Shown here: one piece after another, positions 1,781 through 28,250 of the stretch
Layout of the letters: the number at the start of each line of letters is the position of its first letter
How positions within the stretch are numbered: the stretch's first letter is position 1
Assembly: GCA_004298405.1 (NCBI GenBank)
Contig: SCSL01000037.1
Location: 1-33,271, forward strand
Direction of reading: 5' to 3'
DNA length: 33,271 nt
From: Patescibacteria group bacterium
Lineage (GTDB): Bacteria > Patescibacteriota > Patescibacteriia > UBA9934 > GWF2-40-263
Position numbers and translations under genes: made by a program
Notes under the pieces: model-generated
What the model was told of the DNA's origin: nothing
Seen by the model: the letters and a program-made list of their open reading frames with translations, nothing else
The model's database searches: none

Positions 1781-1821
1781 ATTGATAAAACCCGCAAGCT
1801 TTGCTATTCTCGTGCCGTAGT

Positions 1822-24866: not shown

Positions 24867-25877
24867 TTATGTTATCACATGTTTGTATCCATGTTCGGTT
24901 ACCACACGTCCACGCGGTGTGCGGGCGAGGAACCCAATTTGGATAAGGAACGGTTCATGGACGTCCTCGATCGTTTGGACTTCTTCTTGGGTAGCCGCCG
25001 CAATGGTTGAGAGACCCACGGGGCCTCCGCCAAATTTTTCGATGATGGTGGTGAGGATACGCCGGTCCGTTTGGTCGAGCCCCATGTGGTCGACGGTAAG
25101 TTTCTTGAGAGCCTCCTCACAAAGAGATTCTGAAATCTGTCCGTCGCTTCGAACTTCTGCAAAGTCTCGCACACGTCGCAGGAGACGATTGGCAATGCGA
25201 GGCGTTTTGCGGGAACGTGTTGCGAGAATGTCGATGGCCTGTGGGTCGATGGCGGTTCCCAAGAGATAGGCACTTCGTTTTACAATTGAACCAATATGTT
25301 CATCCTCATAGAAGTTGAGATGGTGGGTCACACCGAATCGGTCGCGCAGAGGTCCTGTGAGTAGGGAGAGACGTGTCGTGGCGCCAATCAAGGTGAAGCG
25401 CTCAAGGTTGAGTCGCAGGGTGCGCGCGGTTGGACCCTTACCCACGATGATATCTAAGGCGTAATCCTCCATGGCTGGATACAGAATTTCCTCGATCGTT
25501 TTATTGAGGCGATGAATTTCGTCGATAAACAGAATGTCACCGCGACCAAGATTTGAGAGGATCGCGGCCAGATCACCGACACGCTCGAGTGCTGGTCCAG
25601 AGGTTACGCGTATCTGTGAGCCCATCTCATGGGCGATGATGTGAGCGAGAGTGGTCTTCCCAAGACCAGGGTTCCCGTAGAGCAGGACATGCTCGATCGG
25701 TTCCTGACGCTTTTTGGCGGCTTCGATGAAGATCGAAAGGTTTTCCTTGATGTCGTCTTGACCGACAAAATCCTGAAGGGTCTGTGGTCGCAACCCAACC
25801 TCAAACTCCCGCTCCTCATTTGGGGCCTCGGTTGCCACGATTCGCTCTGGGATCTCCATTTCTTCACGTTCGATCAT
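24867..25877 (-). CDS. ruvB: Holliday junction branch migration ATPase RuvB
   Basis: [62 protein letters not shown]. Confidence 0.97.
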
Positions 25878-25886
25878 ACTCCGGTT

Positions 25887-25918
25887 CCCCTCCTTTTTAA
25901 GGAGGGGCTAGGGGTGGT
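25887..25918. repeat. Palindromic element just upstream of ruvB
   Basis: CCCCTCCTT-TTT-AAGGAGGGG-CTAGGGGTGGT. Confidence 0.65.
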
Positions 25919-25956
25919 TACGAGTCCATTATGCCTGCGACCGAGTTCGTGAGCAA

Positions 25957-25990
25957 ATAAAAACACTCTTGATCCCAAGAGCGTTTTTAT
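25957..25990 (-). terminator. Terminator after tRNA-Leu
   Basis: ATAAAAACACTCTTG/CAAGAGCGTTTTTAT; the single mismatch is G-U on the minus strand. Confidence 0.75.
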
Positions 25991-26076
25991 TGGTGGGCCG
26001 GGAGGGGATCGAACCCTCATGAGGTTTCCCTCACGACATTTTAAGTGTCGAGCGTATACCATTCCGCCACCGGCCC
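25991..26076 (-). tRNA. tRNA-Leu(TAA)
   Basis: Acceptor GGGCCGG/CCGGCCC, anticodon arm CGACA-CTTAAAA-TGTCG, variable arm, GTTCGATCC, ACCA. Confidence 0.95.
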
Positions 26077-26082
26077 ATTTGT

Positions 26083-26556
26083 TTATCCTCTTCGTTTGTT
26101 TCTGCCACGATGCGTTGGTTTTAAGCTATGGCAGTTTGGGCAGAGAATTCGTAAATTCACCAACCGGTTGTCATGCTTATCTCCATTGACGTGGTCTAGT
26201 TCCAATGGGATTCTCCCATCTTCTGATTTTTTTGCCCAGCCGCATTCTTCACACCTCACTTTTTTTAGACCTACTCGAAAAAGTCTTTTTTTGAGCTTGA
26301 AACTTTGATAGAGGCTTCCTTTGACCAAAACATCATCAAGCGACTGGACATACCTATTTGGATGTCTAAGTCCTCGAGACCAAGCCCTTCCTTTAAAGTG
26401 ACTAATATCAATCTTGAGTTCAGCAAGGTAACGTTTTATCTGATCGTAGTTTCCTCCTGCTGGAACCAAGCCAAGCTTTTCAATCACTTGTCTAAAACTG
26501 ATTGATTCCTTTGCAGCCTTTATTAGTGCGGGATTTGTCCACTTCTTTTTTCTCAT
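26083..26556 (-). CDS. HNH endonuclease (free-standing, homing-like)
   Basis: CEECG...LELDHVNGDKHDNRLVNLRILCPNCH; basic helical N-domain; visibly more AT-rich than its neighbours. Confidence 0.9.
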   Translation of the reverse strand: MRKKKWTNPALIKAAKESISFRQVIEKLGLVPAGGNYDQIKRYLAELKIDISHFKGRAWSRGLRHPNRYVQSLDDVLVKGSLYQSFKLKKRLFRVGLKKVRCEECGWAKKSEDGRIPLELDHVNGDKHDNRLVNLRILCPNCHSLKPTHRGRNKRRG

Positions 26557-26592
26557 ATGGTACAGGCAATTGTATCATATAAATTAGGTTCC

Positions 26593-26614
26593 TATACCAT
26601 TCCGCCACTCGCCC
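26593..26614 (-). pseudogene. 5' stub of a tRNA-Leu-like gene
   Basis: GGGCGAGTGGCGGAATGGTATA, 20/22 identical to the first 22 nt of the tRNA-Leu (26076-26055). Confidence 0.8.
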
Positions 26615-26644
26615 ACACGGGAAAAGGGTAGCAAAGAAGCGGCT

Positions 26645-27394
26645 TTACGCCAAGGTTCGGTGATGGGCTCGTTTCTGTTTTAGTCGTTTTTTGTCTGTAG
26701 GAGAGAGTTTCTCCGTCGCATACGAAAAGGTAATCGCCGGGAGCTCGAGGACATGAGATTCGAGGAACGTGAGGGTTTCGCGCGGCCAGAGTTTGTGCGC
26801 TTCACGCAATTGCCAGCCCACGCCTTTTTGGACATAGAGATCTTTGTCCTGGAGGAGCGGCTCGATGAGAGACAAGACGACTCTGCGTGAAGGAGGACTG
26901 CGTCGAGGACTTGCGTAGTAGATGGTCGAGACGACCGAAGCGCGACGCTTCCATGGGTTCGTTGAGCGATTCCATTGTTGAAGTATTGGTTCAATCAGCG
27001 TTCCGTGTTGTTCATAGAGAATCGACACCAACTGGCAGAGTTGGTCGGCATGCGCCCAGTTTTCGATGCGCTCCATCCATCCTCTGAAGATACGGAAATG
27101 TTTTTGGGTGAGCGTCGACGACTTCCATCGGTAGTAGATGAGCGGCAGGCTCATGACGTCATGGAGCTTTGTGTGGTTCCAGATCTGATTCCAAATTTCG
27201 AGAATCTCCTTATCTGTTTTGTCGTAGAAAGAAAATCCATCACGGACGAGCCGGTTGAGGTCAGGCATCCGCACGGCAAGAAACTTCAGATTCGTTCTGG
27301 TGATCGGCTGGAAGGACGCTTTGTAGGGCGCGTCGACCGGAAGTTTACGGACGCGCGCTTCGACCTCATGGAGGGGGTTTGCTTGACGAGGCAT
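26645..27394 (-). CDS. DNA alkylation repair protein (AlkD-like)
   Basis: FLAVRMPDL, IENWAHADQL, WNRSTNPWKRR, DKDLYVQKGVGWQLRE, YATEK. Confidence 0.85.
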   Translation of the reverse strand: MPRQANPLHEVEARVRKLPVDAPYKASFQPITRTNLKFLAVRMPDLNRLVRDGFSFYDKTDKEILEIWNQIWNHTKLHDVMSLPLIYYRWKSSTLTQKHFRIFRGWMERIENWAHADQLCQLVSILYEQHGTLIEPILQQWNRSTNPWKRRASVVSTIYYASPRRSPPSRRVVLSLIEPLLQDKDLYVQKGVGWQLREAHKLWPRETLTFLESHVLELPAITFSYATEKLSPTDKKRLKQKRAHHRTLA

Positions 27395-27419
27395 ATCGAT
27401 ATGCAAAAATGGGATCACT

Positions 27420-28250
27420 ATGTTATTTGAGACAGCCAAAGACGTTCTAGATTGGTACCAGAAAGGGGATCGCGTGATCACCAAGTCTTTTATCGATGGA
27501 GTTCCATGGGGAGAGATCAAGAGGCATCCCATCGACGAGAAATTTTTTCCGGTTCTTTTGTACATGCGTGATATCGAGACGATGACGACGCGGTATTTTG
27601 ATGAACTCATGAAGAGTGCGACAGGGAAGGAGCTGGTCATTCGTCAGTTCATGGAGCAGTGGGCGACAGAGGAACCAGTGCATGGCCAACTGCTCAGTCG
27701 ATTCTTGGAAGAGGCCGGTTGTCCTCAAGAAAAAGACTGGAAGCAAAAAGGGTTTGACGGACTCACACTCTCGTACCGATTACGGAGCAAGATTCAAGAA
27801 TGGATCACGCTTCCGTTTGGGAAGAACTTTACGAGCGTGCACATGAGCTGGGGCGCCATTCACGAGTACTCAACACTCACAGGATACAGACGGTTATGGG
27901 AGCTGGCGAAACACCCGATCCTTGAGTACATCCTCAAAGCCATTGCTCGAGAGGAGGCCAAGCACGCGATGTTTTACTGGAGTGTGGCTCACATCCAGTT
28001 AAAAGACTCACCATTTCGTCAACAACTTGCGCGATATCTCATCGAGAAGTTTTGGAAGCCCGTTGGGGAAGGAGTGAAGACCCAAGCCGAGAGTAATGTC
28101 GTTATCCGTACCCTGTTTTCTGGAAAGGATGGGGTCGAGCAGATTCGTACCTACGTGAATAATCGTATAGCTCAACTTCCAGGATTCGAGACGTTTACCC
28201 ATGTAACTGAGCGTATCGGGCGGACGTCCCTGAACCACTCAATGATTTAG
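27420..28250 (+). CDS. Ferritin-like diiron protein (acyl-ACP desaturase-like)
   Basis: DIE...WATEEPVH...IHEYSTLTGY...IAREEAKH: two E...ExxH sets. Confidence 0.75.
   Translation: MLFETAKDVLDWYQKGDRVITKSFIDGVPWGEIKRHPIDEKFFPVLLYMRDIETMTTRYFDELMKSATGKELVIRQFMEQWATEEPVHGQLLSRFLEEAGCPQEKDWKQKGFDGLTLSYRLRSKIQEWITLPFGKNFTSVHMSWGAIHEYSTLTGYRRLWELAKHPILEYILKAIAREEAKHAMFYWSVAHIQLKDSPFRQQLARYLIEKFWKPVGEGVKTQAESNVVIRTLFSGKDGVEQIRTYVNNRIAQLPGFETFTHVTERIGRTSLNHSMI

Follow-up and report, generated by a model that had tools for sequence, protein, structure and literature searches.

Free-standing homing-endonuclease genes lodged among tRNA genes are known from the phages T4 and T5. SegB of phage T4 recognizes a conserved motif of tRNA genes (T-psi-C) and drives the inheritance of neighboring tRNA genes (PMC2330249). 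Its authors also proposed that tRNA processing of the primary transcript lowers expression of the endonuclease (PMC2330249). The association of SegB with tRNA genes is described as widespread in phages and without isotype preference (PMC13096335). In bacteria of the candidate phyla radiation (CPR), homing endonucleases have been found within insertions of rRNA genes (PMC11270868). Here, we describe an HNH endonuclease gene that lies between a 5' fragment ("stub") of a tRNA-Leu(UAA) gene and a complete tRNA-Leu(UAA) gene in a 33,271-nt stretch of DNA, contig SCSL01000037.1 of the Patescibacteria assembly GCA_004298405.1. This whole stretch is referred to as the window.

Comparison of the locus with its relatives indicates that it is probably a homing cassette, in which a free-standing HNH endonuclease gene moves together with a tRNA-Leu(UAA) gene of its own. 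The original prediction, made from the window alone, had proposed a minimal selfish unit of this type, and that interpretation is supported by the data presented below, with some refinements. Specifically, the usual home of the family is the spacer between tRNA-Cys and tRNA-Leu; the insertion in the window is old and vertically inherited, with the HNH gene under strong purifying selection; and the stub ends in a conserved inverted repeat. A full-text literature search that did not reach subscription journals and supplements returned no description of a chromosomal, isoacceptor-tied, phylum-wide element of this kind, and yielded for CPR bacteria only the endonucleases in rRNA-gene insertions.

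The HNH/tRNA-Leu locus and its empty site

On the minus strand of the window, the order of parts is alkD, a promoter-like box, the stub, a spacer, the HNH gene, a gap, tRNA-Leu(UAA), a terminator, a 38-nt repeat, and ruvB (interval 26660-25950 and its flanks; Table 1). The box, stub, spacer, HNH gene, gap, tRNA, and terminator had all been predicted, and each was found on the minus strand where it had been placed. The stub and the intact tRNA are identical at 20 of 22 positions, and the two differences fall at positions 5 and 6 of the acceptor arm. The acceptor strand of the stub, GGGCGAG, is therefore unable to pair fully with the 3' strand CCGGCCC of the intact tRNA, as had been pointed out. 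The core of the stub, the 16-mer GTGGCGGAATGGTATA, occurs in exactly two copies in the 1.0-Mb genome, while a reversed-pattern control gave none. The spacer between the stub and the HNH gene is AT-rich and 36 nt long. The intact tRNA has the acceptor arm GGGCCGG/CCGGCCC and the anticodon stem CGACA/TGTCG, and is the single tRNA-Leu(UAA) among the 48 tRNA genes found in this genome, in which the HNH gene is likewise present in a single copy. The HNH open reading frame (ORF) stands alone, outside any intron or intein, and the tRNA gene is continuous. The gap between them leaves too little room for a separate tRNA promoter.

The architecture is not an assembly artefact. In sequencing run X1, one contig spans positions 26042-27300 with zero differences, and the same order of parts was found in a second sample, X2, and at L156, a locus in an independent assembly of a related species. 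Contigs from two further runs have empty-site-like joints at 26593 and 26077. The X2 sample, which covers 25576-27300, holds a related strain with 3 differences in 653 nt over the tRNA, HNH gene, and spacer (25927-26579). Its flanks show 31 differences and 6 gaps in 381 nt on the ruvB side and 28 differences in 743 nt on the alkD side. The adjacent parts of ruvB and alkD are 4-8% different, with the differences clustered (24 are listed within 26797-26985) and the contigs short; this pattern may reflect a recent conversion tract or a mosaic.

To locate empty sites, the entire interval was used as a DNA query, and tRNA genes were then called in the matching regions, which were also read directly. 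The HNH gene was found in none of eight genomes of the same genus (completeness 68-100%). The tRNA-Leu(UAA) gene was recovered in six of these eight, near ruvB in every case, and none of the six carries a stub. In the HNH-less congener G001, the alkD end, the same box (ctttgctacccttttcccgcgt), and a single tRNA-Leu(UAA) follow one another directly. This tRNA starts with GGGCGAGTGGCGGAATGGTATA at the position of the stub and ends with CTCGCCC. Indeed, it had been predicted that HNH-less relatives would have one tRNA-Leu starting GGGCGAG at the stub position, and G001 has it behind the same box. The 22 nucleotides of the stub are the first 22 of the tRNAs of G001, G006, and G008 (22/22), in the same register behind the box. 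This match, against 20/22 for the intact tRNA, bears out the view that the stub is not a simple duplication of the present tRNA. The acceptor arms of G006 and G008 are of the G001 type (GGGCGAG), that of G003 is GGGCCGG, and those of G004 and G007 are GGGCTGG. No relative combines a GGGCCGG tRNA with a stub in the absence of the HNH gene; G003 has the former without the latter. The box lies 10 nt before the tRNA-Leu start in G001, G003, G004, and G007, and empty sites with both this box and the downstream terminator were found in the same four genomes.

The body of the window tRNA differs from that of its congeners. The six share the anticodon arm CAGGGGA CTTAAAA TCCCC (stem GGGGA/TCCCC), while the window tRNA has CTCGACA CTTAAAA TGTCG; all five pairs of the anticodon stem differ, and the variable arm and T-loop are also unlike those of the six. 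Identity of the window tRNA to the six is 77-81%, and its best matches lie outside the genus: 85% to G011, 84% to G014, and 84% to the HNH-linked tRNA of G055, all from other genera. Nevertheless, the terminator and the spacer that follow the window tRNA are homologous to those of G003, G004, and G007. These comparisons show the outer flanks and the stub to be resident, unlike the spacer, HNH gene, and tRNA body, in line with the original prediction. The presence/absence polymorphism of the HNH gene at a homologous locus is a feature by which a free-standing homing endonuclease gene is recognized, and the non-genus tRNA body beside a genus-type stub and flanks suggests that a flanking tRNA marker was co-converted with the HNH gene.

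The L156 locus bears on the age of the insertion. Its flanking genes have 75-79% DNA identity to those of the window, and it shares with the window the box and the arms of the inverted repeat. Its stub has a single change (GGTCGAG...), its HNH protein is 87% identical, and its tRNA has the CGACA stem. Because L156 shares the insertion, the insertion predates the split of the two species and was inherited vertically. For the HNH gene, the comparison of the window with L156 yielded a pS of 0.72, a pN of 0.080, and a dN/dS of 0.034; the corresponding values for ruvB were 0.74, 0.087, and 0.028. Such strong constraint speaks for a working enzyme. At positions 1870-2424 of the L156 metagenome contig, the 3' part of alkD could not be aligned to the window and a different ORF of 143 amino acids lies on the opposite strand; alkD may have been lost or replaced there.

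The protein is an HNH, or His-Me finger, endonuclease according to Pfam, its invariant residues, and its modeled fold. It scored 25.1 bits against HNH_3 (cut-off 24.8) and 23.3 bits against HNH (cut-off 21.4). Nine residues, C102, C105, D121, H122, N134, C139, N141, C142, and H143, are invariant in 62 homologs and make up the motif CxxC...DH..N..CxxCH, that is, a His-Me finger with its catalytic residues and two CxxC zinc pairs. In a structure model (pLDDT 85.7), residues 1-50 form a three-helix N-terminal domain, which a linker connects to the HNH finger. Residues 80-157 of the model resemble the HNH domains of ZRANB3 (Z 5.7) and EcoKMcrA (Z 5.1), and the N-terminal domain has a weak likeness to helix-turn-helix DNA-binding domains (Z 3-4). 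Foldseek found no match in the PDB at E <= 0.001; a profile search of PDB sequences returned only weak McrA rows and NCBIfam only a sub-threshold ZorE HNH-domain row. The protein matched phrog_10822, of phage HNH endonucleases, over its full length at 2.9e-42, with residues 1-156 on profile positions 3-157 of 245. Relatives of the protein occur in 254 phage records.

The HNH family and its usual insertion site

Among 2804 candidates, 2787 protein relatives were found at E <= 0.001, and at least 561 loci in species-representative genomes were confirmed by tblastn. Linkage was counted in the best 80 genome loci and the best 80 metagenome loci. The former carry Patescibacteria titles from many classes, apart from a few metagenome-assembled genomes labeled otherwise. 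The survey of homologs that the original prediction had called for was clear: in 80/80 genome loci, the HNH gene is directly followed by a same-strand tRNA-Leu(UAA) gene, which starts between 8 nt before and 64 nt after the end of the protein match, and in 79/80 metagenome loci the arrangement is the same, the remaining contig ending first. Three order-level homologs (52-62% identity) likewise have tRNA-Leu(UAA) directly downstream (3/3).

To gauge the spread of the gene, a full-length copy was defined by E <= 1e-40 in an even sample of the phylum comprising 401 genomes, of which 24 (~6%) carry one. Among the 23 loci other than the window, 16 have a tRNA-Leu(UAA) whose start lies between 3 nt upstream and 25 nt downstream of the match end, and two have tRNA-Leu(CAG) 5-6 nt downstream with tRNA-Leu(UAA) ~60 nt upstream. 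One further locus is cut by a contig end, and one is a divergent copy without tRNA-Leu. The family shows a patchy distribution and a tie to tRNA-Leu genes.

Some details of these loci deserve mention. The HNH ORF has no stop codon before the tRNA in 44 of the 80 genome loci (L042-L121); the stop lies inside the tRNA gene in these and up to 37 nt before the tRNA in the others. Thirteen of the ORFs end at tRNA position 47 and five at positions 34-37; in at least L005, the stop is the anticodon TAA itself. Cleavage at the 5' end of the tRNA would leave such HNH messages without a stop codon. In L241 and L248 (genomes G395 and G083), tRNA-Cys, tRNA-Leu(UAA), the inverted repeat, and the HNH gene are followed after 5-6 nt by tRNA-Leu(CAG); in the HNH-less relative G408, tRNA-Leu(UAA) and tRNA-Leu(CAG) are 4 nt apart. 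L240, L243, and L244 (G369, G433, and G134, of one family) have tRNA-Leu, the repeat, and the HNH gene in this order; no tRNA was called beyond the HNH gene.

The usual insertion site is apparent from the tRNA gene on the other side. A tRNA-Cys(GCA) gene was found within 200 nt upstream in 44/80 genome loci and 39/80 metagenome loci. In HNH-less relatives of the carrier G108, tRNA-Cys lies 3-118 nt upstream, mostly 15-20 nt, in 13 of 14 tRNA-Leu(UAA) loci, the fourteenth being cut off by the start of its contig. The common empty site is thus a short Cys-Leu spacer.

Stubs have arisen elsewhere in the family. Full-length stubs were counted in 7/80 genome loci and 7/76 metagenome loci using a strict pattern that misses the type of the window itself and of whose matches two are doubtful. 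All of them end 48-60 nt before the HNH start, and the acceptor arm of the stub is unlike that of the linked tRNA in 12/14. By reading, stub loci mostly have no tRNA-Cys nearby, although L096 has tRNA-Cys, 6 nt, the stub, and the HNH gene. These arrangements suggest that where tRNA-Leu has no conserved left neighbor, the left junction falls inside the resident tRNA, whose first 22-26 bases are left behind. A search of the three order-level homologs for the stub gave no match at <=6 mismatches in 22. A degenerate stub-like piece was seen in L005, by eye only. A stub-like piece upstream of an HNH-less tRNA in G036 was discarded, as it is actually the end of an ORF and a terminator.

Other HNH genes of the phylum also adjoin tRNA genes. 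A distant family (L008-L011, in G024, G043, G026, and G032; 30-38% identity over the HNH domain, ORFs of 153-176 amino acids) lies directly before tRNA-Ser(UGA) in 4/4 loci, with a gap of 2-6 nt or an overlap of 15 nt, and has tRNA-Ser(GCU) just upstream in three. A small family of 130-216 amino acids with a Cys-rich N-terminus, CxxC...CSNKCQ (L260-L265, in G304, G383, G219, G315, G333, and G394), adjoins tRNA-Thr (UGU, GGU, or CGU) in 6/6 loci, lying either 25-60 nt downstream or 0-53 nt upstream of the tRNA gene. Flanking tRNA genes seems to be a general habit of HNH genes in the phylum.

Upstream inverted repeat and anticodon-stem allele

An inverted repeat precedes the HNH gene. In most loci, its arms are AATGGTAnACGC and, after ~20 nt, GCGTnTACCATT upstream of the HNH start. 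The first arm corresponds to the D-loop and the 3' strand of the D-stem of tRNA-Leu; it forms the end of the stub in stub loci and stands alone after tRNA-Cys. A register scan anchored on the first-arm motif located this motif in 64/84 loci (71 occurrences). At least 8 of 9 positions were paired in 7, 9, and 4 of 66 occurrences at spacings of 19, 20, and 21, respectively, and in 0-2 at each of 37 other spacings. In an alignment of 62 loci, 74.6% of the cells pair, as compared to 29-44% when the partner is slid, and covariation was 0.204 as compared to 0.150 in shuffles, none of 500 shuffles reaching 0.204; the best of three spacings was taken for each locus, which favors pairing somewhat. In an unbiased search, the best stem exceeded the 95th percentile of shuffles in only 15/84 loci, such that the motif-anchored scan was needed for the signal. 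Upstream of the HNH gene in the window, the unbiased search returned ATGGTATAGG/CCTGTACCAT as the best stem, with a 24-nt loop.

The repeat overlies elements of a putative HNH promoter. A -35-like TTGnnn usually lies within the loop, and a TGnTAnAAT box comes after the second arm. The type found in the window differs: here the loop contains the -10-like box, and 2 nt separate the second arm from the start codon. TGnTAnAAT boxes equivalent to the TGaTACAAT of the window occur in loci of this type such as L102, L098, L112, and L156, and we infer that this box is a promoter element of the HNH gene. Between the window and L156, both arms are kept and the loop has diverged. At the true spacing, G-T pairs showed no enrichment relative to C-A mismatches (0.79 vs 0.74 per occurrence), and the repeat may therefore act as DNA. 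By analogy, its most likely role is that of a target-like operator for autorepression. The proposed model for the D-loop-like repeat described here is I-TevI, a homing endonuclease whose own promoter is overlain by a target-like operator to which it binds; the putative operator of the HNH gene departs from it in consisting of two inverted D-loop-like arms 19-21 nt apart. The first arm may also serve as a left homology arm.

The linked tRNAs tend to carry a particular anticodon stem. CNNCA/TGNNG is present in at least 126/159 HNH-linked tRNA-Leu(UAA) genes and in 5/31 HNH-less tRNAs from two clades; in the even sample, 15/21 HNH-adjacent tRNA-Leu(UAA) genes have a CNNCA stem. A CNNCA-type pattern, which fails to detect two carriers with A at tRNA position 7, matched 36/401 genomes, comprising 14/24 HNH carriers and 22/377 others (Fisher p = 1.7e-10, relatedness ignored). 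The HNH-less genomes with CNNCA are in part congeners or family members of carriers, as is G294 with G192 and G323, and G335 with G415. The simplest reading of this distribution is that the tRNA body was converted along with the HNH gene and remained after the latter was lost, CNNCA probably being an immune allele. The GGGGA stems of the genus, the genus-type stub, and the CGACA stem beside the HNH gene make the window fit such co-conversion.

The remaining features of the interval are listed in Table 1. The TGcTACCCT motif has 2 matches in the window, as compared to 0.4 expected. It and TGaTACAAT are regarded as putative promoter boxes from reading and from conservation in relatives; a scan for the sigma-70 consensus flagged neither. 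The stub had been said to sit about 10 nt from its box as tRNA-Cys does. The spacing is indeed 10 nt in both, but the tRNA-Cys box reads TGcTATTCT, so the likeness is approximate. An upstream motif of the genus, CTTTGCTAYYCT, is followed by ~10 nt and then the tRNA, as at tRNA-Cys in the window (1803-1821) and at tRNA-Leu in G001, G004, and G007; it is probably the -10 region of the tRNA promoter of this lineage, departing from TATAAT. A terminator scan listed the hairpin after the tRNA on the plus strand only. The neighbors of the interval encode a bPH_2 protein, RuvB, an AlkD-like protein, a di-iron protein, and PolX. As originally noted, no integrase or transposase is adjacent, and neither these nor a phage gene were found among the neighbors within several kb. 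A palindromic repeat of 38 nt (AACCACCCCTAGCCCCTCCTTAAAAAGGAGGGG...) lies on the minus strand at 25885-25922, just upstream of the ruvB start. It has 13 copies at <=5 mismatches in the same genome and dozens at 90-100% identity in congeners, the contig depth is ~10x higher over it in four runs, and CCGGA often follows. It looks like a REP- or MITE-like element of the genus.

Table 1. Features of the HNH/tRNA-Leu interval, positions in the window
Feature	Position	Strand	Basis or remark
alkD-like DNA alkylation repair gene, upstream flank	26645..27640	-	ORF; Pfam DNA_alkylation 1.3e-32; 78% nucleotide identity with flank of G001 and G003
TGcTACCCT, promoter-like box of former resident tRNA-Leu	26625..26633	-	by reading; kept in relatives
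22-nt tRNA-Leu(UAA) 5' stub GGGCGAGTGGCGGAATGGTATA (acceptor 5' strand, D-stem, D-loop)	26593..26614	-	10 nt past box
5' arm of inverted repeat, GGTATAGG	26591..26598	-	overlaps stub end; equals tRNA D-loop sequence
TGaTACAAT, extended -10-like box of HNH gene	26569..26577	-	within inverted-repeat loop; by reading; equivalents in relatives
3' arm of inverted repeat, CCTGTACC	26559..26566	-	2 nt before HNH start codon
HNH endonuclease gene, 157 amino acids	26083..26556	-	ORF; Pfam HNH_3 and HNH
6-nt gap, HNH stop codon to tRNA 5' end	26077..26082	-	by reading
Intact tRNA-Leu(UAA)	25991..26076	-	ARAGORN; Rfam tRNA 57.6 bits
Terminator-like hairpin and T-run, resident downstream flank	25955..25988	-	homologous to post-tRNA sequence in G003, G004, G007
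ruvB, downstream flank	24867..25877	-	Pfam RuvB_N 4.1e-79

Interpretation, alternatives, and known systems

If the locus is a homing cassette, its history would be as follows. The ancestor would have had a solitary genus-type tRNA-Leu(UAA) between alkD and ruvB, with the acceptor arm GGGCGAG/CTCGCCC and the anticodon stem GGGGA/TCCCC. A break in this resident gene would have been repaired from a foreign donor. On the right side, the repair would have relied on homology within the 3' portion of the tRNA or at its end; on the left side, it would have joined at the D-loop through the D-loop-like sequence of the cassette (the 5' arm). In the product, the resident promoter with tRNA bases 1-22 would be joined to the inverted repeat with the HNH promoter, then to the HNH gene, and last to an entire foreign tRNA-Leu(UAA), which would now be the sole UUA decoder of the cell. 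The three-helix N-terminal domain is predicted to read conserved tRNA-Leu gene sequence, from the D-arm to the region of the anticodon stem, and the HNH domain to nick or cut HNH-less alleles near the junction of the D-stem and anticodon stem. Highly conserved flanking tRNA genes would act as homology arms across species. In most Patescibacteria, these arms would be tRNA-Cys and tRNA-Leu; where tRNA-Leu is solitary, they would be the D-loop mimic and tRNA-Leu. The CNNCA/TGNNG allele would be carried along and would probably confer immunity. With the HNH gene and the tRNA 0-10 nt apart or overlapping, transcripts of the essential tRNA are predicted to run through the HNH gene, and a cell that lost the element would then lose expression of the tRNA as well. 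RNase P processing of the shared transcript would in turn limit HNH expression. More tentatively, and with rather less confidence than even odds would imply, a phylum-wide HNH family with tRNA homology arms may be overwriting the essential tRNA-Leu(UAA) with a CNNCA immune allele, its D-loop mimic serving both as left arm and in self-repression.

Several observations weigh against the homing interpretation or parts of it. The insertion is not recent: in L156, at a synonymous divergence that is saturated, the stub and junction are the same and the HNH gene is as constrained as ruvB. This constraint exceeds what the classical homing cycle of invasion and decay would entail and leaves room for a host function. 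Three of the 23 loci of the even sample have no tRNA called downstream, and have a tRNA-Leu ~60 nt upstream. As for immunity, CNNCA occurs in 22 HNH-less genomes, including G011 and G014, and is absent from 6/21 HNH-adjacent tRNAs; the enzyme could instead prefer CNNCA alleles as targets. The D-arm sequence of the linked tRNA is the same as in HNH-less alleles, so D-arm recognition alone is insufficient for self-immunity. A tblastn search at E <= 10 for decayed HNH remnants beside 20 HNH-less CNNCA-type tRNAs found none, only two spurious short rows. With respect to the operator, the pairing of the arms is largely explained by the conservation of both, and the covariation (0.204 vs 0.150) is modest. 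Separately, some of the 20 HNH-less CNNCA loci have enlarged Cys-Leu spacers of 55-140 nt.

The age and constraint of the HNH gene are among the grounds for a different explanation, in which the protein has ceased to be, or from the start was not, chiefly a selfish homing enzyme, the gene is domesticated and kept, with its co-transcribed tRNA-Leu(UAA), for a service to the cell, and the stub is the fossil of one old acquisition. In variants of this explanation, the module provides an anti-nuclease or anti-phage tRNA whose anticodon stem escapes a tRNA-cleaving toxin, or regulates tRNA-Leu expression via the inverted repeat. A dN/dS on par with that of ruvB across a pS of 0.72, the identical junction in L156, an arrangement that would force co-transcription of the HNH gene and tRNA, and the distinct anticodon-stem allele that accompanies the HNH gene are all consistent with it. 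In phages, moreover, modules of SegB and tRNA have been shown to serve anti-defense (PMC13096335). We nevertheless consider such domestication unlikely: the gene is carried by only 24/401 genomes and by 0/8 congeners, no conserved partner gene lies beside it, and its phage homologs sit in tRNA arrays and are annotated as homing endonucleases. Further, stubs with mismatched acceptor arms recur independently, which shows repeated invasions as opposed to one acquisition.

The same stubs bear on the notion of a local rearrangement, that is, a partial tandem duplication of the resident tRNA-Leu with an unrelated HNH insertion between the copies and ordinary mutation thereafter. Short duplications are common around insertions, and stub and tRNA share 20/22 bases. 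This scenario is very improbable, however, given that the stub is the genus allele and the complete tRNA is unlike the six congeners in its anticodon-stem pairs, variable arm, and T-loop; that the mismatch between the acceptor arms of stub and linked tRNA is repeated in 12/14 loci elsewhere; and that the HNH/tRNA unit recurs in unrelated genomic contexts. There is similarly little probability that the locus is left over from an integrative element or prophage whose attachment site was tRNA-Leu and whose integrase was later lost. Transfer RNA genes are classical integration sites, and partial tRNA duplicates flank genomic islands, but the insert is only ~540 nt, it is the 5' end of the tRNA that is duplicated and not the 3' end, synteny with relatives extends through the flanks as far as the stub on one side and the tRNA end on the other, and the several kb around it lack any integrase, transposase, or phage gene. 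Finally, a bacterial group I intron has its classical home in tRNA-Leu(UAA), and this raises the idea that the stub and the downstream tRNA are one gene interrupted by a group I or other intron, or a split tRNA. This is hardly credible: the downstream tRNA is complete and continuous, the acceptor strand of the stub cannot pair with the 3' end of the tRNA, and no intron family reached its gathering score, the single weak row being group-II-D1D4-3 (17.8 bits vs 32) with no group I match.

A free-standing HNH homing-endonuclease gene with its own tRNA-Leu(UAA) thus remains our preferred explanation, and its consequences would extend beyond the window. An element that replaces the only gene for an essential tRNA would link selfish DNA to the evolution of the translation apparatus in genome-reduced bacteria and would provide a natural explanation for horizontally replaced tRNA genes. 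Its mobility would require no integrase, and only ~25-85 bp of universally conserved homology. The system would be compact, consisting of a 157-residue enzyme, a predicted target at the junction of the D-stem and anticodon stem, a predicted immune allele, and a predicted operator. To judge from the census of the family, and from its sister families at tRNA-Ser and tRNA-Thr genes, parasites of tRNA genes may form a general class that has been overlooked in these bacteria. On the more tentative reading given above, a selfish nuclease, and not translation alone, would shape the sequence of an essential tRNA in Patescibacteria; the sister HNH families beside tRNA-Ser(UGA) and tRNA-Thr may do likewise; and the swapped allele might also protect against tRNA-cleaving toxins.

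Among known systems, T4 SegB is alike in being a free-standing endonuclease gene lodged among tRNA genes with co-conversion of tRNA, and the tight HNH/tRNA junction in the window suggests the same lowering of expression by tRNA processing that the SegB authors proposed. The likeness is functional and not familial: SegB is a GIY-YIG enzyme, whereas Pfam detected only HNH-type domains in the protein studied here. Moreover, SegB is a phage gene whose product recognizes the T-psi-C of many tRNAs, whereas the HNH gene is found on cellular chromosomes across a bacterial phylum and is associated with tRNA-Leu, mostly UAA, and a D-loop mimic. A stub and a promoter inverted repeat are not met with in the accessible portions of the SegB accounts.

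Homologs of the protein itself are found in the tRNA regions of phages. The T5 gene hegA, whose product is named F-TflIV in the record annotation, encodes a protein with 43.8% identity over residues 64-156 (tblastn), residues 1-63 being unmatched; it is located behind two tRNA genes and is longer (coding sequence of 684 nt). A homolog in Citrobacter phage Maleficent is flanked by tRNA-Ser(UGA) and tRNA-Leu(UAG) and stops 1 nt short of the tRNA-Leu gene. In these phages, the gene sits within large tRNA arrays, and no evidence of a stub, or of replacement of the sole essential tRNA gene of a host, was seen there. The endonucleases in the rRNA genes of CPR bacteria are alike in being of the homing type and in invading highly conserved RNA genes in the same phylum. 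Those are intervening sequences inside rRNA genes, whereas the HNH gene is free-standing, lies outside the mature tRNA, and brings a whole copy of the gene with it. Overall, the element differs from the T4 and T5 systems in being chromosomal, phylum-wide, and specific to tRNA-Leu, in replacing the sole copy of an essential tRNA gene, and in its D-loop mimic.

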